Shown here piece by piece: positions 8,300 through 50,809 of a stretch of 64,000 nucleotides of DNA. Below the pieces are notes generated by a model. That model was not told the origin of the DNA, made no database searches, and saw only the letters and a list, made by a program, of their open reading frames with translations. Both the position numbers and the translations under genes were made by a program. The stretch comes from Geosiphon pyriformis uo1 (taxonomy: Eukaryota > Fungi > Glomeromycota), in the NCBI GenBank assembly GCA_016748015.1, contig JAAOMT010000479.1:120332-184331 (forward strand), in the 5' to 3' direction. The stretch's first letter is position 1. Every line of letters starts with the position of its first letter.

Positions 8300-9001
8300 A
8301 TGTCAAATTGATCAACCAAAATAATATATAAAGACATAATATATATAACCAAAAGCAACAATAAAAAGATGAAAATTACTAATAACATCTATTTATTTAC
8401 ACAACAACTATTTCAATTAATTCAACAAACAAATCTAAAAATCACAATTAATCAACAAATTATTTAGTACAAAGATAATAAAAAGAAAATTCAATACAAA
8501 GTACACAAAAAATTGGAAACCAATATAGACAAAATAATAGCAAAAATAAAGCTGTTAATAAAAACATTAAAAACAGTTATATCATACTAAAAAGTAACCA
8601 AAAAAACTTGGAACTGGTGGTTACAACAATTTTCAAGAAACTTTTGTTATTATTACTTAAAACAAAACCTAAATATTTAAAACTTATATACAGACAAAAC
8701 TAAATAATCATTTAATACAACAATATTACAACAACTTGAACAATTTGTGAAAAAAAACAGTCTGTTTATACAGACATGAGTTATATATTGGCTACACACA
8801 GAATTTTAAGATCAACCAGCAATACTACTTAATTCAATGATGAATACAGTTATTATCAACCAATTAGAAAAAATAACCAATGCCAAATTTGAAAAATTGC
8901 AGATCAAAATAACTCAAATAATTCTTGAAAAAGAAGTTTAAGAGTTAATTAAAGAAAGAGAGTTAAGAAATATAAGAGATTTCAATAGAGTTCAATATTA
9001 A
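8300..9001 (+). pseudogene. Accessory 3' ORF (ORF3) of copy A, unknown function
   Basis: ATG at 8300 at the integrase C-terminus; ends DFNRVQY* immediately before the PPT; homologous to ORF3 of B, C and D. Confidence 0.8.
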
Positions 9002-9014: not shown

Positions 9015-9918
9015 TATTACTTATAGAATATAGAAATCATATATTAATACATAAATTAGCCAATTAAAATAAGATATAGTAAAAGTGGAATTCCAAGATT
9101 CCTTTCAGAAAAATTGCAGGATTCCAAAATTATAGAATTCCAGTATGAAGAATTATAGAATTCCAAAATTCCAAAATTTTTCTTAGGCAATTACAGGATT
9201 CCAAAAATTCCAGAATTTTTGACTAGAAAATTGAGAAATTCAAGAAATTTTATATAACAAAATTATGTATATATAACAGTAGTATTAGAAGCAAAAAAAA
9301 CAGAATTCCTCAACTAGAATTCTTTGTTTAGAATACTCAGTTTCAATTTCTATCTATTCTTTTATATAATAATATTCTATAATTTAAAGTAAAGACATCA
9401 AATATTAATAAAATACTTGTTATTATCACAATTTATCTTTCTGCTATTAGCTATTTATGTTAATAATTACTAATACTTAACTATACTGGACCAATAACTC
9501 TTAATCATAACTATTGACAGGATACTAAATTTTCTTGCTTTGGCTTATTTTTTTATTTTTTTTTTATTTTTTTTTATTTTTTTTGTTGTTTATTTATTAA
9601 ATTGATTAAAAAAAATTAATGTGCAGAGTACTGGCATCAAAATATAATACTGGTAAAAGATCCAAAAATAAGAGTAGATATTCAAAATTGAGGATAGCTT
9701 ACTAAAAGATTGTTGGCCACCAAGCCAAGAAAAAAATTGACAGAATTGCAATTCCAAAAGACAACTAAAAACAACTTTTGAATTTTTGTCTATTATACAA
9801 AGAACTTAATTAAAACTTTTAGATTAAAATCTTTAGATATTACCAATAATATTAGCTATTGAGCACCAAGTTATGGGTTTGTTATTTGTTTCCAGACCCC
9901 AAATAATTACCTGTAACA
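9015..9918 (+). repeat. 3' LTR of copy A
   Basis: TATTAC (decayed TGTTAC)...GTAACA; GGAATTCC-type U3 repeats 9085-9250, TATATATA ~9270, AATAAA ~9407, hairpin module 9443-9527, T-tract 9545-9590. Confidence 0.92.
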
Positions 9919-12211: not shown

Positions 12212-13109
12212 TGTTACAGATGATTATTTGGGGTTTCAAATCAAATAACAAATTTGTAACTTGGTGCTTAATAATTAAATTATATTGGTAATATCTGAAG
12301 GTTTTATGATCTGAAGGTTTTGGTTAAAGTTCTTTGTATAATAAACAGAAATTCAATAATTGTGTTAATAGCCTTTTGGAATTACAATTCCATTCAATTT
12401 CTGTTTTTAACATAGTAACCAGTTTATTTTGGTAGTTGTGCTCTTCTAGTAAGCTATTTTTAAATTTTTAAACTCTATACTTTCCCTTTGAGATCTTTTA
12501 TTAGGCTATCTTTAATGTCAATAACTCAGCACTTAATTTTTAATCAATTAGTAAACAACAAAAAAATAAAATCAAAAAAATAAAATATAAATCAAGGTAA
12601 TAAAATTAGTATCACATTAATAGCCATGATCAAGAGCTATTGTTCTAGTGTGATTAAGTATCAGCAGCTATTAACATAAAGTATTGATAGTTGGAGTTTA
12701 ATAAATATTTTTTAATCAAATGATGACAACATGAATTAGATATAGATAAGTGTTTTATTGATATTTTGATGATTTTACTTTAGTAGATATGAACTATTTT
12801 TAAAGTAATTAATAAATAGATAAGAAAAGAAATCTGAACTAAGAGGTCTATTTTTTTCTGTTTCTAATGCTACTACTATATATACATAATTTTCTTTACA
12901 TGAAAAATTCTTTTTCTTTGCTTAATTTCCTGAAACATTCAAGATTTCCTGAAAAATTCTCAACTTTTCTGAAATATTTTGGATTTCCTGAAACATCTAA
13001 AATTTTCTGAAAAATTCTCTTTTTTTTTCTTCTATTTTAATTGGCTAATTTATAATCATGTGTTTTTTTTTTAAATTATGTATTATTTTTCTCTTTTCTA
13101 AGTGTAACA
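12212..13109 (-). repeat. 3' LTR of copy B
   Basis: TGTTACA...TGTAACA; purine tract on the minus strand at 13110-13125; matches 20065-20521. Confidence 0.92.
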
Positions 13110-13123: not shown

Positions 13124-13836
13124 TTAATATTGGGCTTCATCAAAATCTCTTAATATTTCTTTTTGTAATAATTTCATAACTTCTTTTTCTAAGATTATTT
13201 TATCTATTTTTCTATAAAGTTTTTCAAACTGGCTGTTGGTCATTTTTCCCTATTGATTAGTAAATAAGCTACTGATTTTTGGTTGTAATAGTATTTCTGA
13301 ATAGTTATGAAAGATAGTGTATATTTAGTAGATAGTTTTGATGTATATACTCGAATTGGATTTCTTTTCAAGAAAGTTTTCTATGTCTTATATAATCTTT
13401 TGATCAAAGACTCTTCTGGTTTGATCTGTATACAAATTTTGGATCATTACTTTTTGTCTCAGATGCCAATAACAATATAAAACTGGAAATTGTTTTATCC
13501 ATTGATTCCAATTTCCTGTTGTCACTTCTCTTGGTTGAACAGTGACAGTTGGTTTTTTAAGAGCACTTTTCACTTTCTCAATAATTTTGTTAATATTATT
13601 GTTAATTCTTTTGTGTATTTGTTAATATGATGTAATATTTTTTCTTTTTTTTTTAGTGTTTTTATAGTAGATGGTTTGATAATTGATTGTTATTTCCATG
13701 TCTATTTGTTGTTAATTTATGGCCTAAAATAATTGTTGTGCTAGTTAGTAAATATGGTTTGGAATTTTCATTTTTTTGTTATTGTTGTCATATGCTTTGG
13801 TTTCTTATATATTGTTTTGGTAAATCAGATCAACAT
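13124..13836 (-). pseudogene. ORF3 of copy B
   Basis: Includes ORF 13388-13573 (NWNQWIKQFPVLYCYWHL); ends DFDEAQY*. Confidence 0.8.
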
Positions 13837-19800: not shown

Positions 19801-20064
19801 GTTTGGGCATGATTTGCTTTTAACTCAGCTGATTCTAAATCTCTAATATAGTTAATGGCATCCTGAAATATAGTTGGACATAGTGGACATACATGTTGTA
19901 ATAAGCTGCTGCATAGCCTATGAATAAACTAATTCAAAACCTGAAATATAATAAAGTAGTCTGCATTAATGGCTTGAATTTAATGCAAGTTTCTGTAAAA
20001 GCATTTTAAGTAAGTGATAACAGTTTCAATGTTTTTCTGTTTAATAGTAGTGAAATTAGTTACT

Positions 20065-20521
20065 AAGTATTGACAGCTATCAACATAAAGTGTTGATAAT
20101 TAGAGTTTGATGAATATTTTTTAATCAAATGATGGCAACATAAATTAGATATAGATAAGTGTTTTATTAATATTTTGATAATTTCACTTCAGTAGATATA
20201 AACTATCTTTAAAGTAATTAGTGAATAGATAAAAAAAGAAGTCTGAACTAAGAAGTTTGTCTTTTTTTATTTCTAATGCTACTGCTATATATACATAATT
20301 TTTTTTACATGAAAAATTTGTTTTCTTTGCTAAATTTTCTGCAAAATCTTTGATTTCCTAAAACATCTAAGATTTTCTGAAAAATTTTCAACTTTTCTGA
20401 AATATTTTAGATTTTCTGAAAAATTTTTTTTTCTTTTCTTTTATTCTAATTGGCTAATTTATAATCATGTGTTTTTTTCTTTTTTGATTATGTATTATTA
20501 TTATTTTTTTTAAGTATAATA
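20065..20521 (-). repeat. Truncated 5' LTR of copy B fused to mid-gag by deletion
   Basis: Near-identical to 12655-13109; abuts gag FTTIKQ codons at ~20055. Confidence 0.88.
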
Positions 20522-22290: not shown

Positions 22291-23092
22291 TATTATTGGA
22301 GGTTTTTAGTCTCTTTTTTTGAATGTTGTTGATATTTGTTTGTTGTAAATTTAGGTTTTTTGGAAGTTAGTAAATCTTCAATAACTGAATTTATTTTCAA
22401 ATTATTTCTTATAATTTGAACTGCTGGACTTATAAGTAGAATAGCCAATTCTGTGCCAATTGTTTTGTATAGTTATATTGTAGTAAATATCAACTCTTTC
22501 TTAAGAATTGCTTGTTTAGAAGCTTACTAAAAAATGTGTAGTTACTTTGCTGTAAAAGTTAACTCTTTTACAGAAATTTTGTCTGTAAATTACCCTAATT
22601 ATTATAATAAAAAAACAAAAAAAAATATAAAAAATATAAAAAAAATAGGATTTTGTTAAGTGAATTATTTTTTATTTAAGCCTGAAGTCACTAACAAATT
22701 ATTGAAATTGATAACTAATTAATTTCAAAATATTAGTTGGGTTTTTGGAGAATTATTAAATATAATAATCAAAGATTGAGTTTTCAAATATTTATTTTTA
22801 TTGATTTATAAAGATATGTAAAAGAATGATTTTTTTTAGCTAAGATATCTAAGAAAAAATATATTTTTTTGAAGAAAAAAGCTCTTTTTTTATACAATTT
22901 GTTGTAATATTAGTCTTTGAACTTGCATTTTTTCTTTTGTTATAATTTTGGTGAACTACAAGTTATTTCTATAAACTATTAATTATTTGGGCCAATTCTT
23001 ACTAATTTCGGCAAATTTTTGAATATTAAATAGTTTAAAGTATTGTGTAATTTGATTATTTTAATTTCTATAGTACAAATTGAATTATTAAT
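22291..23092 (-). repeat. 5' LTR remnant of element E (family 2 LTR)
   Basis: Reverse complement aligns with solo LTR 43877-44811; followed on the minus strand by the decayed PBS TTTTGTGCTCTTT. Confidence 0.85.
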
Positions 23093-23547
23093 TGTTTTAT
23101 TATATATTAATAGTATTTATATATTATTTTTATTTTATAATATATAAATTTTAATAATAATAATTGGTTAAATTTCATTATCTTTCTCTTGTTGATCCCC
23201 CGGTCACAACAAGAGTGAGATATTGTCAAAGAAAAAGTCTTCTTTACTCCTTATTCTCTTCGTATTTTAATTATTTCTTCGAGCATCCCTTTATTCATGA
23301 ACATAGAACCAGTGAATTATGTTGCTGGTGGCTCTGGATCTACTTCTGCTGGTTTGGGAAACTGGCTCGATACAAAAAAGAAGAGAGTGAATAATGTATA
23401 TTCTTATAGTGCATCTTATAAGAAGCCTAAAAATCCTAAAGTTGACATTGGTATGGTCGATTTGTCTGCTGGTCTGTTGGGCCTGGCCGATATTGGTAAT
23501 GTTGACAGTAAGTTTTCAAAATCTTGGGGCAGCAAAATGGAAAGTGA

Positions 23548-24368
23548 TGTTATAAATGATTATTTGGGGTTTTAAGTCAAATAACAAATCCATAACGTGG
23601 TACTTGATTGATATTCTGGTGTTAATATCTGAAGGTTTTGTTGTTAAGTTCTTGGTATAATAGACAAAAAATGAATTGATGGTTTTATCTATAGCTTTCT
23701 GAAACCACAGTTTTGTCAAATTTTTTTCTTAGCATGGTGGCCAGTAATTCTTCTGGTAAGCTATCCTCAAGTCTATAAGTGTTTTACCCTTGTTTTACAG
23801 GTCTTTTACCAGTCACTATAACATCTGTATCTCAGCATTTTTAATTCTCAATCAATTAGTATACAACAATAAAAATCAAAGAAAGAAAAGAAAATAAAAG
23901 AAAAGAAAAAAAGAAAGGAGCCAAGACAATGCACAAGTTAGTATTCCGTCAATAGCCATAATCAAGAGTTATTGTTCCTGTGAGTTTAAGTATCAATTAC
24001 TATCAACATGAAGTGTTGATTGTGAAGAGTGAATTTGAGATAGTGAATAATTATTTATTGATATTTGTAATATGAAAAGTTTCTAACTGATGGATTCTGC
24101 TTTTTTTACTTCTAACACTACTGCTATATATACATAATTGATGTTTTATAAGATCGCTTACATTTCTGAGCAATGTGCTATGATTTCTTGAGCAATACTC
24201 ACATTGCTGAGCAATGTGCTCTAATTTTCTAACATTGCTCCATATTGCTGAATGATATGCCATGTTTTCTGACATTGCTCCATATTGTTGAGCAATGTGC
24301 TTATGTGCTAACTACTACTCACTTATTGATCTACTATTTTCTATATCTGTTTTTTTTTATGAGTAATA
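23548..24368 (-). repeat. 3' LTR of copy C
   Basis: TGTTATA...GTAATA; collinear with 42474-43338; U3 built from CACATTGCTGAGCAATGTG palindromes. Confidence 0.95.
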
Positions 24369-24382
24369 TTATCTCTTTTTTT

Positions 24383-25082
24383 TTAATATTGAACTTCATC
24401 AAAATCTTCATTCTGAATTAATTTCAATGCTTTTTTTTCTAGTATTGCTTGTTTGACTTTCTTTTTTATGTTTTTTACTTGTATATTGTTCATTTTTCCC
24501 CATTGGTTAATGGTTATGGTTTTTATGTCGGAGTGTAACAGTATTTCTGAATAGTTCTGAAATATGTTGTATAGTCGGTACATTGTTTTAATATGTAGTG
24601 TTGAATTTGTTTTTTTCCAATAAATTCTTCAATTTGTTGTATTATGTTCTGGTTAAATATTCTCTTAGATTTGTTGGTATACAACTCCTAAATATTCAAC
24701 TTCCGACCTAACCAGTAATAGCAGTATGATATTGGAAGTTGTTCTGTCCATTGCTTCCAATTCTCTTTTGTAAGTTCTTTTGTTGGTGCCATAGCAGAAA
24801 TTTTCCCAAAAGTGTTCTTTACTTTTTCTATTATGTTGTTTAACCAGTTTTTATCATTCTTTGGTACTTGTTGATATAGTGTATTCTTTGTCTTTCTTTT
24901 GGTGTTTTGATAGCAAATTGTTTGGTTATTAATGATAATTTCTATGTCAAATGGTTGTTGACTTAATGCTTGGAATAATTGCTGTACTATGGTGTGAATA
25001 TGATCTGGTATTTCTATTTTCTTGGTTGCTTTTGTTGCATATATTATGTTTTTATATATTCTCTAATTGTTTGATTTTACAT
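24383..25082 (-). pseudogene. ORF3 of copy C (~233 aa)
   Basis: Reads ...HTIVQQLFQAL...ENWKQWTEQLPISYCYYWLG...MYRLYNIFQNYSEILL...EDFDEVQY*. Confidence 0.82.
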
Positions 25083-28000
25083 GTTTGGTCCAATGATTAT
25101 GATTGGTTCCAGATCTCGTGGAATCTCATCTGGTTGGACTAGTATTTATTGTACTCCTAATTGTGGAATATTATTGGTGAATAGTGACACTATATAGTGA
25201 TATGGTTTCAGTTGATCACCATATGCTGCTTTGGCTAAAATTTTGTTGTCTCATCTTAATTTATAAGCTTTATTTCTAAGAATTTCTTCAATGTGAAATG
25301 GTCCATCCCATTTGGAGTCAAATTTTCTACTCCATTGTTTTTCTGCTTTAGTACGATGTAGAAGTACTTTGTCTCCAATCTTGAATTCAACTGGTTTGTT
25401 TGGTAATTGGTTATCATGTCTCTCTTTTTGTTTTTCTTGTGATTTTTTAATGTTATCAGCTGCTCTTCATCGCTTGTTTTCTAGAGTTTCCATCAAATCA
25501 TATGTTTTTTTTAGCAATGTTTTCTGAAAATTGTCTTCAGTTATTGGTTCTGTTAGATAAGTGTTGACTTCTATTTCAACTGGTAATATTGTTGTTCTAC
25601 TATATACTAATTCAAATGGTGTTGCTTGTGTAGTGTCTTGCTTATTGTCTGATAAGCTAATAGTATTGATAGTATAAACAAATCCCATTTATTCTGATTT
25701 TTTTGACTGATCTTGGTGATTGCTTCACACAATGTTTTGTTAAACCTCTCAACTAACTCATTTGTTTGTAGATGGTATAATAATAATAATGGTCTTTTGA
25801 TTCCAAATTTCTGACTTAATTCTGCTAATGTTCTGTTTACAAAGTGAGTTCTTTGATCTGATAATAGTTCTTTTGGACATCTATGTCGACAAATTAAATC
25901 TTGATGAATGAATTCGGTAACGGATTCTGCATCTGCTCTTTAAATGGCTTTTGCTTCTGGCCATTTTGTGAGATAGTTCATAGCTACTGCAATATATCTG
26001 TTGCCTCTACTGGTGATTGTTAATAGTCCGACTAAGTTAATTCCAATGCGATCAAATAGTTGTTTCACTTTAATTAGTCTTAATGGTTCACTGGGTCTTT
26101 TTTCTCCTCTTCTCTGACAAGCATCACAATTTTGAGCATATTGGATGATGTTTGGATACATTAATAGCCAATAGTATTTTTTTCTGGTTCTTTTTATGGT
26201 TGTTTCTTTATGAAAATGTCTTGCTGTTGGGTTTGAGTGTATGTTGAATAATATTGTCTCTTTCTCTGGTTCTGTGATTACTCTGATTGGTTGATCTGGA
26301 TTTCTTCTGTTCTTTCAGTAAAGTATATTTTGATGGTTGATAAAATATTTTGATTGTTGTTTTATGTTGTTTTGTTCTTTTTGAGATAATTTCTCCTTAA
26401 ACAATTGGGTATTTATATAATATTGGAGTTGTTAGTATTTTTGTATATTTATCTTTTGTTATATTTTTGGGTTGGAATGTTTTTTTTTTAGATTTGTTTT
26501 ATTGACAACAGTCCATTGGCATTTCCATTGTCTTTTCCCTTTTTATAATATACTGTATAATTAAATGGTAAAAGTTCTATTTTCCATCTGGCATAACAAT
26601 TGTCTGCAAATTCTTGTTTTTGGATTGAAGTCATTCTTTTGTGATCAGTATACACTTTAAACTTTTGGCTCAAGTATTTTTTCAATTTAATAACAGCCCA
26701 ATAGATAGCTAAGTGTTCTAGTGCTGGAGTTCTATAGTTCTTCTCAGCTGGACTTAAGCTTCTATTGGCATAAGCTATTGGATGTTCTCTTCTATTGGGT
26801 TCTTTCTGTAAAAGTACTGCTCCCAATACTTGACCTGATGCATCAGTGGTGATTATGAATGGTTTGCTGTGGTCTGGATACATCAATACTGGAGCTTAAA
26901 TAAGCTTTCTTCTTAATGTATCAAAAGCTTCTTGTTGAGTTTCTGTCCATTGATACTTCACATTCTTTGTTTGGAGTTGATGTAATAGTTAAGCTATTAT
27001 AGAAAAATTCTTAATGAAGTGGTAGTAGTATCTGGCAAATCCCAAAAACACTCTCAATTCTATAAGATTATTTGGTACTGGAAAGTTCTTGACAATCTCA
27101 ATTTTGTCTGGATTTGTTTTGATTCCATCTTTGCTCACCACATGTCCCAAAAACTTGAGTTCAATTTTTCCAAAGAAACATTTGGTTGCATTTAATTTCA
27201 GTCCAGCTCTTCTTAATCTTTCAAACACTTGTTGGAGATAATGCAGATAATCATCAAATGTTTTTGAGAACACATTGGTGTCATCTAAGTATACAACTAC
27301 TGATTTCCATGTAATCCAGTATAGACAATTTCCATAAGTCATTGGAATGTTGCTAAAGCATTCATTAAGCCAAATAGCATGACTTCAAATTTGAAATTCT
27401 CTTCTCTTATTGTGAATGCAGTCTTTTTTTTGTCAGCTGGGTCTATGGCTACTTGTCAGTAACCACTATCTAAATCCAGTGTCGAGAACCATTTATTTCC
27501 TCCAAAAGCATTGAACAGCTCTTGGATTTTGGGCATTGGATAGCTATCTCTTTTGGTTACTCCATTGAGTTTCTGGTAATCCACACAAAAGTGGATTTTT
27601 CCATTTTTTTTCCAGACTAGCACCATTGGTAATGACCATAGATTCATTGATGACTGAATTAACCTATTGTCAAGCATCCAATTGATTTTTTGACAAATGA
27701 TTTCATGGCTAGCTGGTGGTACTCTGTATGCTCTTTGCTTAATTGGCATTACATCTCCAGTCTTGATCTGATGCTAGATGATGTTGGTTCAGCCAAATTC
27801 ATTTTTGCTAGCAAAGATGTTATTGAAATTGTTAAGTAACATCTTGAGTTGCATCTATTGAAGTGGATCTAAATTTCCCATGTTCATCTGTTCTAATTGT
27901 TCTGGTTGGAGCAGATAACATTCACTTCTTCCATAGATGGTTTGTGATGTAATGTCTACATATCCACAAAGCTGTGGAAAATCCGGAACATGGTTTGGTG

Positions 28001-31000
28001 GTTGATCCTCAACTTGAGTGATTAAATATCTAATGATAGTTCCCTTTGGTATTTTAATGACTTTTCCAGTTGCAATATAGATGGGAATTTTGATGTTTTT
28101 GGGGCTTTTGGCTGATATGTAAAGATTAGTAAGTCTAATTTTTTCTGATTCACAAATAGTGGCTTTTGCTTCAAACAATTGAGCTTGATCCTTTACTTCT
28201 CTTTTTATGGCTAACATATACTGATCATATGATGGAATAGAGATTGATTGACAGGTTAAGATAATTTCTCCTTTGTTAATAATCTCTTCCTCTGCCATAT
28301 TAACTGGTACGTCTATTTTACCTGTTGATCCAAATCCCTGTATCTTTTTAGCAGTAATCCTTAATTCTTCCCTGTTTTCCACTAACACTAATTGAGCTAT
28401 TTTCACCAAAGATAGGAATATTGCCTGTGCTATCTTTTTGTTTAGATCTATGGTATATGCTTTTTCTGAATCATTTTGTAGCATAGCAATGATATTTTCT
28501 ACATATCCTGTGTCAATTATTTCTCCTTTGATGTTTATCTCTTTTTTTGCTAAACTACTCCTAGATGCTAATTGAATCATTGTTGTTGCTAGAATTTCCA
28601 GTGCTATTTTTAGATCAATACAAGTGCGCAAATGTGGTTCCAATTTGATGAGATTTTTCTCTGGATATCTCAGATCAAACTCTGCATCAGTATCATGTGC
28701 ATGTTCTGACATGATACCTTCGCCATTATTGCTGAACCATTTAAGTTCCTGCTTTTTGAAAAGGTCAGGAAGTGCGATAAATGTTTTGGGGTTTGAATCA
28801 GAGTTTGAATTGTTGTCATTTTCATTGCTATTTGAAGCAGAGCTGGAATTGTTGTTTTCGTTATCATCATTGTCAGAGTTTGAATTGGGATCAAAAGTTG
28901 ATTCCAATTCCAATGTGCAGTTGCTCATTGGTTTGTTTTTTTCTGGGATCATGTAAATCATGTGTGGTAGTGGATTGTAAATAAGATCACACTCATTGCA
29001 ATATTAGAAGTCATATGGGATCAAACAGTGGTCACATAATCAGGTGTTTATTTCTTCCAAGCATTGTTTCTGCTCTTCTCTGGTGGATGCTAATTGCTGG
29101 TAATGTTCATGAAATTCTTCTGGGTTGTCCTCAATATTGCCAAAGATGTCAAAAGTTTGGACATATTCAGATTCAGGAAGAGATAAAGAATTATTTTTAA
29201 TCTTTAGTAGTTTGTTGGTTGTTGCACTTTCTGCTTTCACATATGCCATTCTTCATAGTTCATCTTTGTCATAGAAATATCCTTCCAATTGTTGCAATGC
29301 TCATTTTTAGGCATTGTTGATTAGTGTTCCTTTGTTTACCTAATTGTTTATCAGTATGGTGTACTGGCATGTCTTATCACATGTTCTTCCATGCCCAGAA
29401 ATGTTATTCCACATTCCTTCATCAGGTAAAATAGTTTCACATGTGAGACATGGTTGGTTATCCCACTTTTCTTGTTGTTTCAGTTGTCCAAAGCACTTTA
29501 TGATGCATGGGTGGCAGTAGAATCTTGTGGCCATGGAGTATTCTTCATCATCATCACAGCATGTGCCTATTGACAACAATTTTTTGTCACAATCGACACA
29601 TTCCAATTTTGATTAACAATAATTGGATGGTGGTAATGAAGTGTAAGTGTATGAACTATAAGTGCTGTTGGTGAGAGTAGTTTCTTTTTTTTCTCCTTTC
29701 CCTTTTTCTTATTAGTTTCTTCCCACTTCCAGTTTGTTGGTTTGTCTTGGTTATTATCAGTTTCCCAGTTTTGGTCAGTATTCCAGGTAAGTTTTTTGTT
29801 TTCCTTCCCTTTTCCCTTGTTGTCCCAAGAAGTTATTAGTGGTAGCTTGTTGTGGTCTTCATCAGCTCAAGAGATTTAGTATGCTTCCCAAATAGGTTTC
29901 TCTTTTTCTTCTTTGAATTTGATAAGTGGAGCTGATGGTGTAGTGATGGGTCTGAAATGACCACACATGGCTGGTACATGTGTGTGTCATCTGTTTTGGC
30001 TAAGCTGGAGCTCTTGGGTGTTTTAGTCAAGTGTTGTGTTGATTTTGAACAGCCAGTTATTACCTACTAATGCTTAGTATTAAGTGGCTTCCATGACTAA
30101 TATCTTAATTGGTACAGTGATATCATTAATTTTTATGAGCAAGTTATCTATTTCACCAATTGGAGTCTTAGTGGTCCTATTGGCTGTAATTATCTTTGCA
30201 CTGGCAGCTTGATCAACTCGGTGATCTAATTGGTTCATGAACTGTCTTGTGATGATGCTGCCAGCTAATCCACTATCTAGAATCAGTTTAATAAACTGAC
30301 CATCAATTTTGGCATCTGTGTATATTGCTATGATAGGTTTTTCCTCGAGTGTGGCTCCACTGAACAAAGAGATTTCTGTTGGTTCCTCAATTTCGAAAGA
30401 AAATATAACTACTAGAAACTCATATTTTATGACAGTGGCTGGCGGAATATTGGTAAGTGATTGCTTCTGTTTGGGTTTCTGAGTGTTGGATGCGGCATCT
30501 TCTGTGGTAATCAGAAGACTTAAATAGTTTTGGGAACTTGGGTTTTGAGTATATTCAGTTTCTGAACTCCACTGTCATGATCTTGATGGCTGGTTAGATA
30601 AACTGGAGATCAGTTAGTGAACAACTATTGCCAATCTCCAGTTTTGAGTGACTTTTGATTTAGAGTTTCCTAATGTTATTTGAGCTGAGTTTAATAGCAG
30701 TGTTTGAATTGTGAGTGTTTGATAAATTATTTGTGGCTGTAGTAGTTAATATATTATTGGTGGCTGTGGTTGATAAACTGAAGGTTGATATACAGGTGGT
30801 TGATATATTGGCAGTTGTATCATTGGCAGGTAAGTTGATTAATATGGTGCTGAGTTGGATTAATAACTCAGAGTTGGGAACCGGTGATCAGGGTTTTGAT
30901 ATTGATTTCCCGATTGTTGGTTATTATTATAAAATCAGCAGTTGGCTCTAATATGGTCTTGTTTACTACAATTATGATAGACACACATTTTTTGTTGCCA

Positions 31001-31714
31001 TGGCTGATTTGATGATAATAAACGTAACTGATTTTGGAAATGATTCATGTTTTCTGAATTATTGCATCATTGTAGTGATTGATAAATTGCATGATTGTCA
31101 GCTAAGTATCCTTCTAATTTCTGATTAATTGAATTACTGAATTGTTTTAATTTGAAATCCAATTCAGATGATCCATTCATCACTAGATTAACGGCTTGGG
31201 CATGGCTTGCTTTAAATTCTGCTGATTTGAAATTTCTGGCATTTGTAACTGTGTTTTGGAGAGTTTGTGGGTGTATTGGGCATATGCATTGAAGTAGGCT
31301 ACTACACAGTCCACAGATAAACTGATTTAAAATCTGAGGCACTGTAAAATAGTCAGCTTGAATTGCTTGGATTTGGCATAAATTTTTATGGAAATGTCCC
31401 AAGTAAGTGGTAACTGCTTCAGTTTCTCCCTGTTTAATTGTGGTAAAAGTGTTGGCTAAGTGATTAATGTTGTTATTATTACTGAAATATTCCAGGAATG
31501 CAGTTTTGAATTTCTGGAATGTTTGAGGTTTAACGGCTAAACTCTGATACCATGAATTGGTGGTATCTTGTAGAAAATAGAGAATTGCTTGAAGGGCTCT
31601 GTCATTGTTCCATCCATTGGCTGCAATGGCTTTTTCCACATTGTTAAGCCATACTTGGGTGTTATCCTCTTCACCAGTAAATTTCTCAATTTTGGCGATT
31701 AGAGCATAAGCCAT
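25078..31714 (-). pseudogene. gag-pol of copy C
   Basis: Gag 31067-31714, CHNC-type knuckle ~30950-30990, protease LILDSG 30080-30367, Cys-rich 28970-29606, dUTPase within 27855-28961, RT 26989-27749 (VYLDD), RNase H 26488-26886 (TDAS..LEHLAI..YTDH), integrase 25078-26300 (H..H..CDAC; KFDSKWDGPF). Confidence 0.96.
28321..28712 (-). pseudogene. dut: dUTPase domain in copy C Pol
   Basis: All five trimeric dUTPase motifs in order: A[EG]FDL, LASRSS, GEIIDTGYVENI, KIAQ, GFGSTG. Confidence 0.92.
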
Positions 31715-31942
31715 TGGTTGTTGTTGTGATTGCTGCTGGATTTGTTGAGATAGTGGTTGTGGCTGTTGTTGTTATTCAGCATTTGGTGGTACTGATAGTG
31801 AATTAATCACAATTACTGGAGGTAAGTGTTGTTGATTATTAATATTGGGTTTTCACTTGTTCTGATTGTACTGCATTTGAAAATTTGGAGTTTCAATTTC
31901 CAGATTTTTTAAAGTTAGATTTTGCTGAGTTTGAAAGTTTGG

Positions 31943-32402
31943 TATTACAGATGACAATTTCTGGTGTTGAATTAAATATGAACCTGTAACTTGGTATTCA
32001 AAGCTATTCTCATTGTTGATAATCTGAAGGTTTGGTATCTGAAGGTTTTGAGATAACAAATAGTTATTTATTAGATAATTGTAATTTGGAAAGTGGCTTA
32101 GATTAAATCTAAAACTAAGAGGTTTGTCTTTTTAGCTTCTAATCCTGCTGCTATATATACATAATTAAGATTCTTCAATTTCTTGATTCTTTACGACAGG
32201 AATTCTGGAATTCCTGGAATCCTGCAATTCTTTTGAGAGGAATTCTAGAATTCTGCAATTCTGCAATTCCTTGTCAGGGAATCCTGAAATTCCTGGAATC
32301 CTGCAATTCCTGAGAAAAATCCTGGAATTCCACATTTACTATGTCTACTTCTGATTGGCTAATAATCATACTAATATATTTCCTATATTTCTATGAGTAA
32401 CA
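31943..32402 (-). repeat. 3' LTR of copy D (internal ~420-bp deletion)
   Basis: Matches 40768-40875 joined to 41294-41663. Confidence 0.92.
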
Positions 32403-32415: not shown

Positions 32416-33111
32416 TTAATATTGAGCTCTGTCGAAATCCAACTCATTTAATTTCCTCTCTTAAAGTATTTTCTGGATTTCATTTTCGAGAATTACTTGT
32501 GTTATTTGGGTCTGTAATTTTTCGAATTGAGCATTGGTGATCTTTCCCAATTGATTACTGGTAACCATATCCATTGTTTTGTTGAGTAATATTTCTGGTC
32601 TATCTTGAAATACTGTGTGTATTTGGTATATAGCTTGGGCCTGTGTGGATAAGTTATTCTTTCTCACAAAATATTCTAATTGTTGTAGTATTTTTTTGTC
32701 GAATAATCGCTTTGTTTTATCTGTATATAAGTTCTGGATATTTACGTGTTGTCCCAAGTAAAAATAACAATAGTTTCGTGGAAATTGTTGTATCTATCAA
32801 TTTCAAGTTTTTTTAGTCAACTCTTGATATAGTAACTTTTTTGTCAACTCTCTTATTGCTAATTTTACTTTTGCCATGATTTTGTCCATAGTATTTTTAG
32901 TTTTTTTCTGTGTTCTGGGTTGTAATGTCTTTCTAGTATTTTGATATTAAATGGTTTGTTGATTGATTGTAATTTCCATTTCCTGGTGTTAGATCAATTG
33001 AAAGAGTTGTTGTGCTAGTGAGTGAATGTTGTCTGTAATTTCCATTTTTCTGATATTTTCTGTCGTGTCTATCATGTCTTTATATATTCTTTTGATGAAT
33101 CAATTTGACAT
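32416..33111 (-). pseudogene. ORF3 of copy D
   Basis: Includes ORF 32461-32757; ends DFDRAQY* next to the PPT. Confidence 0.82.
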
Positions 33112-36100
33112 GTTGTTGTCAATAATAATGATTGGTTTCAGATCTTGTGGAATCTGATCTGGTTGGACTAATATTTTCTGTACTTTTAATTGTGGAATAT
33201 TACTGGTGGATGATGGTATGGTGTTGTAGTATGGTTTTAGTCGATCTCTATGTGCTGCTTTGGTTAAGATTTTGTTGTTCAGTCTTAATTTGTAAGCTTT
33301 ATTTCCTAGAATTTCTTCTATGTAAAATGGTCTATCCTATTTGGGATCAAATTTTCCACTTCATTGTTTTTCTGCTTTGGTACAATATAAGAGTACTTTG
33401 TCTCCAATCTTGAATTCAACTGGTTTGTTTGATAGTTGATTATTATGTCTTTTTTTCTGTTTCTCTTGTGACTTTTGTATGTTATCAGCTGTTTTTCTTC
33501 GTTTGTTTTCCAATGTTTCTATTAAGTCATATGTTCTTCTTAACAATGTTTCTTGGAAATTTTTTTCTGTTATTGGTTCAGTTAGATATGTGTTGACCTT
33601 TATCTCTACTGGTAATGTTGCTGTTCTACCATATAGTAATTCAAATGGTGTTGTTTGTGTAGTGTCTTGCTTCATTGTTCAATAAGCAAATAGTACTGAT
33701 GGTATCAACACATCCTAATTGTTCTGGTTTTCTTGGCTGAGCTTAGCTATTGCTTCACACAATGTTCTGTTGAATTTTTCAACTAATCTGTTGGTTTGTG
33801 GATGGTATGGTGATAATAGTGGTCTCTTAATTCCAAATCTTTGGCTCAATTCTGTTAATGTTTTGTTCACAAAATGAGTTCCTTAGTCTGATAATAATTT
33901 TTTTTGACATCTGTATTGACAAATTAAATTTTGATGAATGAATTTGGCAACAGATTCTGCATCTGCTCTTTGAATTGCTCTCACCTCTAGCCATTTTGTA
34001 AGATAGTCCATGGCTACTGCTATGTACCTGTTTTTTCTTCTGGTGATTGTTAATGATTTGACTAGATCAATTTCAATACAGTCGAATGATTGTTCCACTT
34101 TGATTGGTCTTAATAGTTTACTGGATTTTGTTTCTCCTCTTTGCTAACAAGCATTACAATTTTGAACATATTAGATGATATCTGGATATATTGATGGCCA
34201 ATAGTATTTTTTTCTGGTTTTTTCTATGGTTGCTTCTTTGTGAAAGTGTCTTGCTATTGGATTTAAGTGCATATTGAATAATATTGTTTCTTTTTCTGAC
34301 TCTGTAATTACTTTGGTTGGTTGCTCTAGCTTTCTTCTATTTTTCTGATACAGTATATTTTGGTGAGTAATAAAATATTTTGATTGTTGTTTGATACTCT
34401 TTCGTTCCATTTAAGATAAATTCTCCTTGAACTGTTGAGTGTTTATATAATGTAGCAGTTGTTGATATTTTTGTATGTTCATTTTTTGTTATATTTTCGT
34501 TGGTATTGTTATATTTTTGGGTTGAAATGTTCTTAGATTTGTCTCATTTGCGACAAACTGTCAGCATTTCCATTGTCTTTTCCCTTTTTATAATGTATAG
34601 TATAATTATATGGTACGAGTGCCATTTTCCATCTTGACTGTCTTCCATTTCCAAATTCTTGTTTTTGAAATGATGTTAATTCTTTGTGATCTGTGTATAC
34701 TTCAAACTTCTGGCTCAAGTATTTTTTCCATTTCATGACTGCCCAGTATATCGCTAAGTGTTCTTGTTCCAGTGTTTCATAGTTTTTTTTGGCTGGTATT
34801 AAACTTCTGCTGGCATATGCTACTGGATGTTCCCTGCCGTCTGGTTTTTTCTGAGATAGTATTGCTCCCAATGCTTGGCTGGATGCATTGGTGGTGATGA
34901 TAAATAGTTTGCTGTAATCTGGATAGATCAGTACTGGAGCTTGAATGAGCTTTCTTTTCAGAATATCAAAAGCTTCTTGTTGACTTTCTGTCCATTCATA
35001 TTTTGTATTCTTGGTTTGCAGCTGGTTGAGTGGCTGCACTATCTTGGAAAAGTTCTTGATAAAACATCAATAGTAACTAGTAAATCCCAAGAATAATTTC
35101 AGTTCTGTTATATTTGTTGGTACTGGAAAGTTCTTTACTATCTCTATTTTTTCTGGATCCGTTTTGATGCCGTTTTTGCTGACTATGTGTCCCAAAAATT
35201 TTAGTTCTGTCTTATCAAAGAAGCACTTTGTTGCATTTAACTTTAGTCCTGCTCTTCTTAATCTTTTGAACATTTGTTGAAAATGATGAAGATGATTATC
35301 AAATGTTTTTGAGAATACATTGGTGTTGTCCAAATATACAACTACTGATTTCCACAATAAACCAGTATAAATGATTTCCATTAGCCGTTGGAAAGTGGCT
35401 GGTGCATTGGTTAAGCCAAATGGCATAACTTCAAACTCAAAGTTTCCCTCTCTTGTAGTGAATGCTGTTTTTTCTTTGTCGGCTGGATCCATGGCTACTT
35501 GTCAGTAACTACTATCTAAGTCTAATGTTGAGAACCATTTGTTTCCACCAAAAGCATCAAATAGTTTTTGTATCCATAGAGTTGGATAGCTGTCTCCATA
35601 AGTTATACTATTTAGTTTTCTGTAGTCTACACAAAATTGGATTTTTCTATTCTTCTTACAGACAAGTACTATTGATGACGATCATGGATTCATTGATGGC
35701 TGAATTAACCCATTGTCAAGCATTCAGTTGATCTCTTGACAGATGATTTCATGGCTGGCTGGTAGTACTCTGTATGCTAGCTGTTTGATTGGCATTGTAT
35801 CTCCAGTCTTAATTTGATGTTGAATGATGTCAGTTCTGCCAAATTTGTTTTCGTTGGCAAAAATGTCATTGAAATTGTTGAGTAACATCTTGAGCTGCAT
35901 ATGTTGTAGTTGGTCTAGATTTCCCATGTTTATTTGTTCTAATTGTTCTGGTTGAAGCAAATAACATTCATCTCGTCCATAGATTGTTTGTGATGTGATG
36001 TCAACATATTTACAAAGCTGTGGAAAGTCTGGAATGGGATTTGGTGGTTGATTCTCTATTTCAGTGTTTAAGTATCCCATAGTAGTTCCAGCTGGTATTA

Positions 36101-39100
36101 CTATGACATTTCCTGTGTTGTTGTAGATGGGAATTTTGATGTGACTGTAATCTTTGGCTGGTATGTGGAGATTGATGAGTCCAATCTCTCTTGATTTGCA
36201 AAGGGTCAGTTCTGCTTCAAAAATCTGATTTTGTTCTTTTTCTTTCCTTTCTATTGCTAACATGTACTGGCTATATAGTAGAATGGAAATAGCTTGACTG
36301 GTTGAGATAATTTCTCCTTGGCCAACAATTTTTTTTTCCACCATATTAACTGGTACATCTACTCTACCTGTTGATCCAAATCCTTGTATCCCTCTTGTTG
36401 TTATCTTTAATTCCTCCCTTGTTCCCACTGACACTAAGCTAGCTACTTTGACTAGTAGCAGGAATATGGTCTGTGCTATCTTTTTATTTGGCTCAATGAT
36501 ATAAGTCTTTTCTGAGTCATTTTGTAGCATGGTACTGATATTTCTTGTATATTCTGCATCCACTATTCCCTCTTTAATATTAATCCTTTTTTTCATTAAA
36601 CTACTCCTAGATACTAACAGAACCATGGTTGTTGCTGGGATCTCTAGAGCTATTCTCAGATCAATGCATGCTCGCGCATTTGGCTCCAATTTGATGGCAT
36701 TTTTTTCTGGATATCTCAGATCAAACCCTGCATTAGTATCATGCACACGTTCTGGCATGATACTTTTCTCATTGTCACTATATCATTTTAACTTCTGTTT
36801 CTTGAAGAGATCTGGTAGTGCAATATATTGTTTGTAGTTTGTATTGGAGTTTGAATCTGAGTTGGAATCATTGTCGTTGTCATTGCCATTTTGAACAGAA
36901 CTTGAACCATTGTTGTCATCATCATTGTTAGAATTTGAATCGCGATTGATCAGTGATTCTGATTCTGATGTGCAATTGCTGATTGGTTTTTCCTCTTTAG
37001 AGATCATGTAGATCATGTGTGGTGGTGAATTGTAAATAAGATCACACTCATTACAATATTGAAAGTCACATGGAATTAAACAGTGGTCACATAACCGGGT
37101 GTTTAGCTGTGCTAAGCACTCTTTTTGTTCTTCTCTTGTGATTGCTAGTCGCTGGTAGTGTTCATAAAATTTTTCTGGATTGTCTTCGATGTTGCCAAAG
37201 ACATTGAAGGTTTGGACATATTCAGGCTCAGATAGGGATAGTAGGTTGTTTTTAATTTCTTTCAGCTCCTCTGTTATAGCACCTTCTAACATAGCATATA
37301 CCATTCTCCAGATCTCATCTTCATTGTGTGGGTATCTTTCTAGGTGTCTTAATGCTCGTTTTCAGGCGTCATTGATGGGAGTTCCCTTTCATACCCAGTC
37401 ATTGATCAGGATGATGTATTGGCATGTCTCATTACATGCTTCTTCTCTTCCAGGAATGTCTTTCCACATCCCTTCATCTAAGAGAGTATCTTCACAAGCT
37501 AAACACAAGGTACCATCCCATTTTCTTATTTTTGGCAGTTGTCCATCACATTCAAGGACACATAGACAACAGTAGTACTTGGTTGCTGCCATCCATTCTT
37601 TGTCCTTACTACAGTATGTGCTCATTGTTAACAGTTTCTTGCCACAACTGACACATACAAGTTTGGGTCAATAGTAAGCGTTTTGAGGTGGTGTCGCATA
37701 TAGAATATGAGTGTAGTAGGTGGTTTGTTTTGGTTCCTCTTCCTGTTTCTTTCCTTTTCTCTTTTCTTCTCAACTCCATTCAGTGGCTGGTTCACTTTGG
37801 CCATTGTCACTCCATGATTTTTGGTTTGTTCCCCAGATAAGTTCTTTTTCTTCTTTCCTCTTTCCTTTGTCATTCCATGAGAGTATGAGTGGCAATTTGT
37901 TGTGGTCATTGTCGGCCCACGAGACTTGGTAAGCTTTCCAAATAGGCTTCTTTTCTTCTTCCTCCAGCTCTATCAATGGTTCCTCTCTTGATAGAATCTT
38001 GAAGTGGCCACACATGGCTGGCACACGTGTGTGTTGACCATTAATGCTTAGTTGGAGCTCTTGCGTTGTCCAGTCCAGAACGGCATTGGTTTTGAACAGC
38101 CAGTTATTACCAACTAGAGCTTGGTATTGAGTGGCTTCTATCACCAAGACTTTGATGGGAGTGATGATGCCATTGACTTCAAATGGGAATTCATCTATCT
38201 TGCTAATAGGCGTTTTGGTTGCTTCATCGGCTGTGAGAATTCTGGCACTGGCAGTGCGATCAACTCAGCAACCTAATTAGTCCATGAGTTGTTGTGTAAT
38301 GATGCTACCTACTAAACTGCTGTCAAGGATCAATTTGATAGATTGTTCATCAACTTTGGCATCTATGTAAATCACAGTGATTAGTTTGGCTTCAAGAGTG
38401 GCTTCACTAAATAACAGCGTTATAGTTGTTTCCTCAAATTTGAATGGAAAAATAGCAGTCAAGGACTCATCTTTAGTAATAGTAACAGGTGGGATATTAC
38501 TGGGGAGTGGTTGTTTTTGGGCGGATTTCAGGTTATTGGCTGAGACATCTTCTGGAGAGACCAGAAGACTTAAATAGTTCTGGAAATTTGGGTTTTGGGT
38601 GACACCAGTACCCGAATTCCAAGAACGTGATCCTGATGGTGAGTTGGAAGAACTGGAGATAAATTGGTGGACAACTATTGCCGATCTCTAGTTTTGTGTG
38701 ATTCTAGGTTTGGAGTGGCCTGATGTCATATTAACTGAATTTTGGGGCAGTGTCTGAATTGATTGGGGTTGATAAATTACTTGGGGTTGTGGCTAATAGA
38801 TTACTGGTGGCTGTGGTTGATAAATTTGAGGTTGATATACTGGCAGTTGATAGATTGGTGGCTGTGTCATTGGCAGATAAGTAATTTGATCTTGATTTGG
38901 GTAACAATTCGGAGTTTGAAATCTGCAATCGAGGTTTTAATATTGATTTCCCGATCATGAATTGTTGCTATAAAATCTGCAGTCTGCTCTTATGTGCTCT
39001 TGTTTACCACAGTTGTGACAAATATGTGTTTCTGGCTGCCATAGCTGATTAGGTGCTGCTAATGATGATGATGGACATGACTGATTTTGGAAACAATTCA

Positions 39101-39767: not shown

Positions 39768-40745
39768 TTGTTGTTGTTGCTATAGTAGAAGTTGTTGTTG
39801 TTGTTGAGGTAGTACTGAGGGTGGTTGTTGAGTTTGTTGGTTTGGTATATGGATGAGCTGACCAATTGGTTCAACTGGTGGTTGATCGATGACAATAACT
39901 GGAGGTAAGTGTTAATTAATTACTTTGGGGTTTTGATTTTGCAGTGCTTGAATATTTGGAGTTTCGATTTCTGGATTTTCTTGCTGAGTTTGAATGTTCA
40001 GAGTTCCAAATTCCAGGTTTTTAAGGATCAGGTTTTGGTAAGTAAATTCTTAATCTTCCGATTTTTTTTTCTTTTTTTCTTCAGATAGTTCTCACAGAGT
40101 AGTGGTTCCAAAGTCTAGTTGAGGCAGTGGTGATCAAATTCCTGATAGTGTTGGTGATTGTGACTTAAATCCTTCAAAATATTCACTATATGGTCCTAGT
40201 AGATCTGTTTTTTTTTGTTTACTTTGGAATGAAAATTGTCCAAATGTTGATATCGTATTTGATGTGGACACACTTGCTAATGTTATATTGATGACACTTC
40301 CCAGTGTGTAGTGATAGGATGGAGCAGTTGGTAATTCAACTCTTGTTTTCTTCTAAGTCAGTAGTTGTATCCTTTTGGGTGTTATCGCTGGTGTTTGTAG
40401 TTTTCCTTTGTCTTTACTGGCGTAAGTAATTGGATATCTTTGTTGATCTCAGTAATGATTGAGGCAAAATTGTGATTTGTTGGCAGGTTGGTATTTTGAA
40501 TTAATTCTCTGTAGAAAGTTTCCCTGGCTGATTCAGTATTCACTGGTGTTTTTAACAAAGAGAAAATCTTTTTGTTGATGTAGAAATTAAAGGCTGATTC
40601 GGCAGATATATGATTGTAATTTAATCCCAAATGTTGACAATAGTGTTGAAATAGGAATTTCACAAATCCTAAATGGTTTGCTCCTATGTTTTCTGATTCT
40701 GCCACTTTTGGATGGTGTTTGTTGGTGCTGGTTTTCTATAAGATT
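39768..40745 (-). pseudogene. Long N-terminal Gag extension / upstream ORF of copy D (homolog in C at 41664-42450 plus 31715-31942)
   Basis: ORF 40382-40705 (VAESENIGANHLGF...) is conserved at protein level between C and D. Confidence 0.7.
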
Positions 40746-40767: not shown

Positions 40768-41663
40768 TGTTACAGATGACAATTTTTGGTATTGAATTAA
40801 ATACGAACCTATAACTTGATGCTCAAAGCTATTCTTGTTGTCAATGATCTGAAGATTTGGTATCTGAAGGTTTTGTATCTGAAGGGTTTGGTTGAGTTTT
40901 TTGTATAATAAACAGAGATTCAATGGTAATAGATTTTTTCATAGCTTCTCAAAACCGCAGTTTTGTCAATTTTTTTCTTAGCTTGATGGCTGGTATTCCT
41001 CCTAATAAGCTATCTTCAATCAAGTATTTTATTCTTATTTCTGAATTTTTTACCAATCATGTTTATCCTAACATCAGTGCCCCATGTGTTAATCTTCAAT
41101 AGAGTTAGTATACAACAATAAAATCAAAGCAAGAAAATAAAGAAAAAAAAATAAAATAAAGAAAAAAAAAAAATAAGACAAGACGATTTGCAAGTTAGTA
41201 TTTCGTTAATAGCCATGATCAAGAGCTATTTTTCCAGTGTGGTTAAGTATCAATTATTATCAACATGAAGTGTTGATAGTAGAAATGGGTTTGAGATAAC
41301 AAAATAGTTATTTATTAGATGATTATAATTTGGAAAGTGGCTTAGATTAAATTTAAAACTAAGAGATCTGTCTTTTCAGCTTCTAATCCTGCTGCTATAT
41401 ATACATAATTGAGATTCCTCAATTCCTTGATTCTTTACAACAGGAATCTTAGAATTTCTGGAAGCCTGCAATTCCTGGAATCTTGCAATTCCTTTGAAAA
41501 GAATCCTGGAATTTTAGAATTCTGCAATTCTTTGTCAGGGAATTCTGAAATTCTTGGAATTCTGCAATTCCTGAGAGGAATCCTGGAATTCCATATTTAC
41601 TACATCTACTTTTGATTGGCTAATAATCATGCTAATATATTTCCTATATTTCTATAAGTAGCA
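40768..41663 (-). repeat. 5' LTR of copy D
   Basis: TGTTACA...GTAGCA; U3 GGAATTCC/CTGCAATTCC repeats 41410-41595, TATA ~41396-41403, AATAAA ~41310, hairpin module 41194-41280. Confidence 0.95.
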
Positions 41664-50676: not shown

Positions 50677-50809
50677 TATTGTTCTGATTGGTCCAAGTGG
50701 CTAGTTACATGTAGAAAGAGCATGATTCACACCTAGTTTAGATTATTTTGTATAATGTATTATACTAAATAGTGTTTGGACTTCACTCATTAAATGAAAA
50801 AAAAAAAAA

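Follow-up and report, generated by a model that had tools for sequence, protein, structure and literature searches.

Four decayed copies of one LTR retrotransposon family lie within a 64-kb stretch of the Geosiphon pyriformis genome (hereafter the window), and each of them holds an additional sense frame, ORF3, in the env position, raising the question of whether ORF3 is a gene in its own right and, if so, what its product may do for the element. The window is AT-rich eukaryotic DNA depleted in CpG (O/E 0.26), and LTR sequence has been reported to account for 41.2% of the G. pyriformis genome (PMC11952901). Perfect 4-bp target duplications were found for two of the three elements with both ends (copies 2 and 3), copy 4 having none that is clean, and the LTR ends read TG/TA..CA/TA across copies, in decayed form. 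Differences within LTR pairs are mostly transitions. The positions of the features are collected in Table 1.

Table 1. Features of the four element copies in the window. In-frame stops of ORF3 are counted from the conserved Met.
Feature	Position	Strand	Remarks
Copy 1		+	5'-truncated
3' LTR of copy 1	9015-9918	+	type A array
ORF3 of copy 1 (type A)	8369-9001	+	7 in-frame stops
Copy 2	20521-12212	-	target duplication ACAG
3' LTR of copy 2	12212-13109	-	type C array 12924-13019 (TTTCAGRAAA)
5' LTR remnant of copy 2	20064-20521	-	
ORF3 of copy 2 (type C)	13124-13771	-	5 in-frame stops
Copy 3	43338-23548	-	holds copy 4 in its 5' region
3' LTR of copy 3	23548-24368	-	TA..CA, decayed TG..CA; then 4-bp target duplication TCAC
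U3 tandem array of copy 3 (type B)	24162-24301	-	period 40, palindrome CACATTGCTcAGCAATGTG; just upstream of TATA box 24125-24136
Polypurine tract of copy 3	24369-24382	-	between ORF3 stop and 3' LTR
ORF3 of copy 3 (type B)	24383-25017	-	one in-frame stop; stop codon 24383-24385; P0003 69-70% identical
TATATAA of copy 3	25052-25058	-	41 nt before the ORF3 Met; weak candidate internal promoter; also 33080-33086, 13805-13811, 8325-8331
Separate integrase ORF of copy 3	25090-26452	-	H2C2, rve, SH3-like tail; 3' end approximate
Stop closing gag-PR-dUTPase-RT-RH frame of copy 3	26488-26490	-	
dUTPase domain of copy 3	28320-28709	-	Pfam; between Cys-rich region and RT
Capsid region of copy 3	31067-31771	-	Pfam (Retrotrans_gag / Ty3_capsid)
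5' LTR of copy 3	42474-43338	-	88% identical to 3' LTR of copy 3; type B array 43068-43273
Copy 4	41663-31943	-	nested in copy 3, between its two LTRs
3' LTR of copy 4	31943-32402	-	internally shortened; type A array 32186-32331, GGAATTCC palindromes
ORF3 of copy 4 (type A)	32416-33045	-	6 in-frame stops; P0002 82% identical
Separate integrase ORF of copy 4	33100-34482	-	ATG 34482 to TGA 33100-33102, stop conserved among relatives
Stop closing gag-PR-dUTPase-RT-RH frame of copy 4	34533-34535	-	
dUTPase domain of copy 4	36366-36764	-	Pfam; between Cys-rich region and RT
5' LTR of copy 4	40768-41663	-	type A array

Besides the four copies, the window contains other repeats and remnants. A 1.84-kb insertion (4512-6353) with remnants of one unrelated ORF, probably another transposon, separates the RT of copy 1 from its RNase H. 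Weak Pfam matches to RT and RNase H mark a LINE-like element (45300-50700 (+), 43340-43700, and 23219-23547), and the translations indicate that copy 3 appears to have inserted into a LINE ORF1-like fragment. In addition, an 870-bp inverted repeat (22293-23112 and 43950-44809) is 78% identical between its arms, a fifth and more decayed integrase fragment of the family occurs without ORF3 at 50916-51630 (-), and the region 52000-56000 is extremely AT-rich (11-12% GC) and contains two tandem arrays of a 12-bp unit (53415-53617 and 54542-54658).

Pfam analysis of copies 3 and 4 revealed the domain order capsid, protease, a Cys-rich region without a Pfam match, dUTPase, RT, RNase H, and integrase, and the presence of the dUTPase, which the initial annotation had proposed, was supported at E 9e-20. 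The gag-PR-RT-RH-IN order, the polypurine tract (PPT), the 4-bp duplications, and a Ty3-type RT identify the element as a Ty3/Gypsy (Metaviridae) LTR retrotransposon. Among 8 solved-structure matches of the RT, 4ol8 (E 3e-26) and the Ty3-G Gag-Pol 7q5b (E 1e-25) were the strongest, the next being 2e-16 or weaker. The integrase tails of copy 4 and the related metagenomic contig L001 gave no match to a chromodomain, the trait of chromoviruses, and that of L001 matched only SH3_Tf2-1, weakly. Membership in Troyka was considered and rejected, as the CG..CG termini and 3-bp target duplication of that group (PMC12440569) are not those of the window elements. The Cys-rich region, with several CxxC pairs, lies between the protease and the dUTPase (36783-37700 (-) and 29000-29700 (-)) and is followed by an Asp/Asn/Ser-rich linker. 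The gag frame carries a long N-terminal extension (40000-40700 (-)), beginning some 40 nt downstream of the 5' LTR, possibly a matrix-like domain, with no Pfam match on the fragments tested.

The usual Ty3/Gypsy placement of integrase inside the Pol polyprotein, which is not a strictly defining trait, was not found here. RNase H is followed by a stop in all four copies as well as in L001, where pol shows about 50% identity to that of the window elements, and a second stop lies two codons 5' of the integrase Met in all four copies, L001 having one stop only. The integrase start codon is ATG in three copies and ATA in copy 3. At the junction (34482-34535 in copy 4, 26452-26490 in copy 3, and 772-805 in L001), the RT-RH stop and the integrase Met are separated by an A/C-rich spacer of 30-50 nt without a conserved splice acceptor; the RT-RH and integrase ORFs share one frame in copies 1 and 2 and L001, and are offset by private indels in copies 3 and 4. 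Since the junction stops recur in all copies and L001 also has the stop after RNase H, integrase is read as an ORF of its own, it being implausible that private decay struck the same two codons in every copy. Moreover, the Gag-PR-dUTPase-RT-RH part of copy 4 remains mostly in one frame, with 29 stops vs 127 and 144 in the other frames. The element thus has three ORFs, namely Gag-PR-dUTPase-RT-RH, integrase, and ORF3.

As the initial annotation had described, a homologous sense frame is present between the integrase tail and the PPT in all four copies, each ending in DF[DN]x[AV]QY-stop directly on the PPT. Of the motifs proposed for it, QQLF is retained in 4/4 copies, while W..W..Q[FL]P..[YF]CY and LYT[DN] are recognisable in decayed form (copy 1 reads QFS, and copy 4 has stops at three W). 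The proposed start at the integrase stop was not borne out: relatives differ in the ATG immediately preceding that stop (48% and 28% other letters). A conserved Met, found in the types whose N-terminus is intact, lies instead some 55 nt downstream of the stop and yields 209-217 aa for the types of the window; in type A, a further in-frame ATG precedes it by 30 nt. None of the window copies is open. Copy 3 has one in-frame stop, its start codon has decayed to ATA (25015-25017), and a 1-nt frameshift lies in an A-run at 24610-24616. At least five of the six stops of copy 4 are sense codons in 81-96% of depth among the 40 of 286 variants listed for the contigs of run X1, which possibly come from the sample behind the window and are not independent of it.

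The four ORF3 copies could be aligned over their whole length, and the alignment carries several marks of selection. Variable columns are distributed over codon positions as 120/84/150 of 204 (position 2 vs 3, Fisher p 5e-11), stops shared by three copies number 0 in the ORF3 frame vs 9 and 5 in the two other frames, and 10 of the 11 internal gap runs are multiples of 3. The dN/dS ratio is 0.16-0.31 in all 6 copy pairs, and the transversion-only ratio, counted so as to blunt post-insertion C-to-T decay, is 0.28-0.55 for ORF3 vs 0.07-0.12 for RT. ORF3 is therefore under selection, though several times more freely evolving than RT. The low dN/dS, the excess at position 3, and the private nature of the stops sustain the earlier description of a fast-evolving selected gene, as does its greater divergence than pol (38-58% amino acid identity vs 60-78% for dUTPase, RT, RH, and IN).

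A gene in this position might still be a tail of Pol. Copies 1 and 4 continue the integrase frame into ORF3 across one stop (TGA), copy 2 does so only via two compensating 1-nt indels, and copy 3 does not. A read-through tail through a CpG-type mutation at the integrase stop (TGA in three copies, CAA in copy 3) was rejected because type A relatives show only TGA or TAA there, the change of TGA to TAA (33%) being the sole variant at 4% or more. For the lineage as a whole, a read-through tail is ruled out by gene order. In L001, a JGI contig, RT-RH and integrase are followed by a 316-nt spacer and an intact 230-aa ORF3 that runs 10 codons into the 3' LTR, and in L002, another relative, a gap of about 700 nt between integrase and ORF3 contains a further 128-aa ORF (427-811) with no Pfam match and no detectable kinship with ORF3. 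This arrangement argues that ORF3 is a stand-alone gene of about 210-235 aa and not a Pol tail. With regard to its expression, a TATATAA lies 40-44 nt before the ORF3 Met in 4/4 window copies, which have no splice acceptor in common; as a promoter it carries little weight, being all A/T, readable as the codons I-Y-K, and followed in type A by an in-frame ATG 5 nt later.

Relatives of ORF3 are concentrated in the same fungus. A protein search gave 179 matches, and all 120 among the matches listed were Geosiphon pyriformis gene models. An unindexed search with a narrow window profile returned 89 representatives, of which the 10 looked up comprised 8 from Geosiphon and 2 metagenomic proteins (230-234 aa). 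Word-indexed protein searches (42-415 residues) yielded only Geosiphon and P0179 among the matches listed, at a limited sensitivity that missed P0159 even though it was part of the query, and no relatives were found in IMG/VR, GTDB, or the phage and plasmid collections. Every relative with a readable context sits behind a Gypsy integrase. One Geosiphon gene model, P0195, contains two ORF3 cores (types H and E), probably two nested elements joined by the gene caller.

The ORF3 protein shows none of the features of an envelope protein, in agreement with the initial annotation. Judged by hydropathy and Cys count, the signal peptide, TM helix, and Cys-rich ectodomain of env-like proteins are missing, the highest 19-residue hydropathy being 0.27-1.29 with 1-2 Cys in 8/8 database homologues tested. 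Most homologues have a basic linker near residues 30-55 (basic 20-mers net +4 to +12), and the pI of the two intact metagenomic proteins is acidic (5.4-5.9). AlphaFold modelling of the full length (pLDDT 72.5) gave a weak N-terminal helix plus hairpin (pLDDT about 65) and a confident helical core, which modelled alone reached pLDDT 90.7 and pTM 0.82. The protein is thus predicted to be soluble and all-helical, with a compact core of six to seven helices behind a short basic linker.

Neither sequence nor fold comparison assigned this protein to a described family. Scans with Pfam, PHROGs, and NCBIfam gave no consistent match, the Pfam scans covering 11 homologues singly and the best 25 of 44 families for 39 alignment members; within the same scope there was no match to DUF1985 or DUF287 of the anti-silencing protein VANC, both of which are Pfam families. 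The best E values against PDB sequences were 0.045 and 0.23, and Foldseek returned 0 matches at E 0.001 or better in PDB and BFVD. VIA-align reached at best Z 4.5 with the full model and Z 5.6 with the core, with sub-significant leads to the CHD1 C-terminal domain (Z 5.6, rmsd 3.8, 87 aligned), Orc6 (Z 5.6, rmsd 3.6, 73 aligned), and Spo0J (Z 5.3, rmsd 5.1, 97 aligned), KorB and ParB following at Z 3.5 and 3.3. The best fold rows (Z 5.2-5.6) include nucleic-acid-binding helical domains, although Z below 6 is background for helical bundles, and a missing fold match does not prove a new fold. By language-model comparison, the nearest neighbour was a Mucoromycota hypothetical Atlas cluster (0.94, 176/256 features) and the top named family an RNA-binding closterovirus coat protein (0.93), further neighbours being DUF6192, RegA, and DUF3102 clusters (0.88-0.91). 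A further lead, likeness to DUF1016_N, showed the expected register but no significance, at an hhalign probability of 0.1-0.2% to a 9-row alignment. In summary, the two findings that would have spoken against the initial annotation, a dN/dS near 1 or an unconserved frame on the one hand and a match to a characterised retroelement ORF on the other, were both absent.

ORF3 falls into deep types, with at least six in one Geosiphon genome (A, B, C, D, E, and H) and the metagenomic types F and G, at 23-45% identity, as typed by a tree of 22 selected rows and pairwise BLAST. The nearest type among 221 stored proteins was A for 155, E for 35, B for 20, D for 7, F for 2, and G and H for 1 each, tallies that count gene models and not element copies. 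The types present in the window differ in their LTRs as well. Tandem Repeats Finder (TRF) detected U3 arrays in all four copies, with a period of 39-40 in copies 2-4 and 16 in copy 1; the arrays form palindromes and stop 20-50 nt short of a TATA box common to all types. The motif is GGAATTCC palindromes in type A (copies 1 and 4), CACATTGCTcAGCAATGTG in type B (copy 3), and TTTCAGRAAA in type C (copy 2), each occurring 4-13 times in the U3s of its own type and 0-1 times in the others, the motifs having been picked after inspection. In a 7-mer shuffle test independent of motif choice, the top repeat exceeded or nearly exceeded all 200 shuffles in 6 of 7 window U3s and 0 of 4 R-U5 controls, failing in one U3 of copy 2 (21/200 shuffles reach it) and in the L001 U3 (74/200). 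One U3 array motif thus accompanies each ORF3 type, in the three types seen with DNA (4 copies). A type's own motif was not found upstream of ORF3 in the window copies. In L001, 5/5 sites of TTGCCCT, a motif picked post hoc, are non-coding, with 3 in U3 and 2 upstream of ORF3, a number reached by 0/200 shuffles.

The genealogy of this pair differs from that of the backbone. U3 identity is 72-88% within types and 43-59% between types, the latter no more alike than unrelated AT-rich DNA, while R-U5 remains 68-74% identical between types. Transversion-informative sites of ORF3 group copies 1 and 4 (52:6:6), whereas RT (10:3:3), PR (18:10:9), and the IN core (5:1:1) lean to copies 1 and 2; the Cys-dUTPase region (25:22:19) and RH (5:5:3) give no clear grouping, and the integrase tail already leans to copies 1 and 4 (5:2:0). 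Between types, transversion divergence is higher in ORF3 (0.15-0.21) than in non-coding R-U5 (0.10-0.12) and in IN (0.02-0.04). ORF3 and U3 are therefore co-inherited on a genealogy unlike that of pol, and this clash together with the divergence of ORF3 suggests that pol backbones, themselves younger and more uniform, have acquired old ORF3-U3 cassettes by recombination.

With regard to function, ORF3 is tentatively regarded, at somewhat less than even confidence, as the third gene of a three-ORF Geosiphon Ty3/Gypsy element whose product is a type-specific LTR-binding activator or anti-silencing factor, comparable in its mode of action to foamy-virus Tas or to VANC. Both roles had been among those suggested in the initial annotation, and the type-specific U3 arrays lend them indirect support. 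Expressed separately, via its own short transcript or by re-initiation, the soluble helical protein would be imported into the nucleus and bind DNA sequence-specifically at the palindromic repeat array in the LTR promoter of its own element, where it could activate the LTR or shield the element from host silencing, resulting in type-specific activation or demethylation of the cognate LTR. Protein and array would then form a lock-and-key pair kept together while pol backbones recombine freely, and new pairs may escape both cross-talk and host silencing. A silencing pressure of this kind is plausible, since the transposable elements of the related fungus Rhizophagus are CG-methylated and make small RNAs (10.1101/2021.03.30.436303) and the LTR pairs in the window differ mostly by transitions. 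The main weakness of the activator reading lies in the adjacency of ORF3 and the 3' U3, because physical linkage alone predicts their co-inheritance; moreover, only three types could be read with their LTRs, and variable palindromic LTR regions occur elsewhere without a known cognate protein (PMC4728375).

It is also conceivable, though unlikely, that ORF3 acts on RNA as a re-initiation trans-activator for the split integrase ORF, an RNA chaperone, or an RNA-silencing suppressor, with the U3 arrays hitchhiking. The P6/TAV protein of caulimoviruses is a translational trans-activator that allows ribosomes to re-initiate, and a polycistronic element whose spacer lacks a conserved splice acceptor needs a means to translate its downstream ORFs. 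Among the top language-model neighbours are a filamentous-virus coat protein and RegA, a translational repressor, but these feature matches share fewer than 170 of 256 features and are without fold support. Small RNAs are indeed made by Gypsy elements of the related fungus (10.1101/2021.03.30.436303), yet an action on RNA leaves unexplained why deep types are paired with different U3 motifs while the integrase spacer and R-U5 remain similar.

A role in integration or in the particle, with ORF3 as a targeting domain that replaces the chromodomain, either as a read-through extension of integrase or as its separate partner, appears rather improbable. In its favour, ORF3 of copies 1 and 4 lies in the integrase frame after only one TGA, the L001 integrase tail has an SH3-like match and no chromodomain, and the best fold rows are chromatin- or DNA-associated helical domains. 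However, relatives retain the integrase stop, copy 3 has no continuous frame, and the two genes lie apart in the metagenomic elements, with 316 nt between them in L001 and about 700 nt and a further ORF in L002. Furthermore, its genealogy is unlike that of the IN core, which is 5-10 times less diverged in transversions, a difference unexpected for an obligate partner.

Improbable too is a repressor or incompatibility factor that limits copy number or blocks other element types, even though the type diversity and cassette-like inheritance fit any specificity system and a protein bound just upstream of the TATA box could act in either direction. Against it stands the great abundance of the family, with 179 gene-model matches in a genome reported to consist of LTRs to 41.2% (PMC11952901). 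The insertion of copy 4, a type A element, within copy 3, which is of type B, attests to co-existence of the types, though not to a lack of interference. Finally, a passively carried host or bacterial gene or an env-like mobility protein is very improbable, for although ORF3 occupies the env position and its nearest Atlas cluster, a Mucoromycota hypothetical family (0.94), makes a host origin possible, purifying selection across types only about 25% identical, with dN/dS well under 1, refutes passive carriage, every context-readable relative lies behind a Gypsy integrase, none occurs in the phage, plasmid, prokaryote, or viral collections, and a TM helix is lacking, with almost no Cys.

Several natural ORF3 types, each beside a different short promoter motif, make a specific and cheap protein-by-array test of LTR activation possible. 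If the cognate pairs do act on each other, the element would encode its own sequence-specific LTR regulator, in a setting outside the retroviruses. ORF3 would then also be a candidate for what caused the LTR burst to which 41% of the genome is owed (PMC11952901), and would supply a set of orthogonal activator-promoter pairs. A broader interpretation, which is doubtful, is that this lineage independently evolved the life style of a complex retrovirus, with three genes each translated on its own, namely a Gag-Pol without integrase, an integrase, and a regulator in a lock-and-key cassette that is Tas- or VANC-like and non-retroviral. Such a cassette would combine a DNA-binding protein of possibly new fold with a cognate palindromic U3 enhancer array, and would have radiated into at least six specificity types in one genome while being shuffled across pol backbones. 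Should the regulator idea fail, ORF3 would still represent a new and, as modelled, well-folded family of retroelement proteins. The split-off integrase in turn raises the question of how downstream ORFs are translated and how an integrase unfused to Gag-Pol is packaged.

As far as searched, the ORF3 protein family, the split integrase, and the pairing of ORF3 type with U3 are new, whereas extra ORFs in this position and dUTPases in fungal Gypsy elements are already known. Literature searches on the family, extra ORFs, and split integrase, far from exhaustive, found no publication on ORF3 or its family and no description of a stand-alone Gypsy integrase, though Repbase or the TE library of PMC11952901 may already name the family. 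Three accessory modules had been proposed for this element, and ORF3, the dUTPase, and the Cys-rich region are all present, but the combination is less unusual than supposed, given the precedents for dUTPases in fungal Gypsy elements and for extra ORFs in this position (PMC2864245, PMC5408684, PMC7264820). The split-off integrase and the pairing of ORF type with U3, which the initial annotation had missed, are the more unusual features.

Extra ORFs between pol and the 3' LTR of Ty3/Gypsy elements have been described in plants (aORF-3S, PMC7264820), rotifers (ORF3s, PMC5408684), and fungi ('add. ORF', PMC2864245), and most extra ORFs of LTR retrotransposons are, according to the first of these sources, without known function (PMC7264820). 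Like them, ORF3 is in sense orientation, in the env position, and present in all copies, and the rotifer and some fungal lineages also carry a dUTPase. In the fungal elements PosPlaTy3 and Tmt1 the dUTPase lies between protease and RT, as in the window elements, although the elements of that survey have a chromodomain, which was not found in those of the window, and its available portion describes no split integrase (PMC2864245). Where a type was given in these sources, the extra ORFs are TM/env-like, GDSL esterases, or DEDDy exonucleases, whereas ORF3 is predicted to be soluble and helical, without a detectable family; its element also differs from those described there in the split-off integrase and in deep ORF3 types paired with U3 motifs.

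The Sireviruses often carry an env-like ORF. In maize Sireviruses, the LTR contains, similar to the window U3s, a fast-evolving, palindrome-rich cis-regulatory block, which has been explained by host siRNA and hairpins (PMC4728375); unlike the window elements, Sireviruses are plant Copia elements, and no cognate element-encoded binder is claimed in the sections of that report available (PMC4728375). A functional parallel may be VANC of the Arabidopsis VANDAL elements, a fast-evolving accessory anti-silencing protein beside a conserved transposition enzyme, whose targets are short tandem-repeated motifs that differ between related families (PMC5735166). VANDALs, as portrayed there, are however DNA transposons, and the window arrays are confined to U3 and only candidate targets.

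The foamy virus protein Tas (Bel1) is encoded next to the 3' LTR. It comprises 209-308 aa, is poorly conserved, is expressed by an internal promoter located where env ends, and, as outlined in PMC3798896, binds U3 response elements that are not conserved between viruses. The ORF3 element differs in its fungal host, in the absence of env, and in that the window copies have no second occurrence of their U3 motif ahead of ORF3; ORF3 gave no match in Pfam or among viral folds that would link it to Tas. Like Tas, ORF3 is a stand-alone gene adjoining or overlapping the 3' LTR; in L001, a motif shared with U3 (TTGCCCT, picked post hoc) lies upstream of it.
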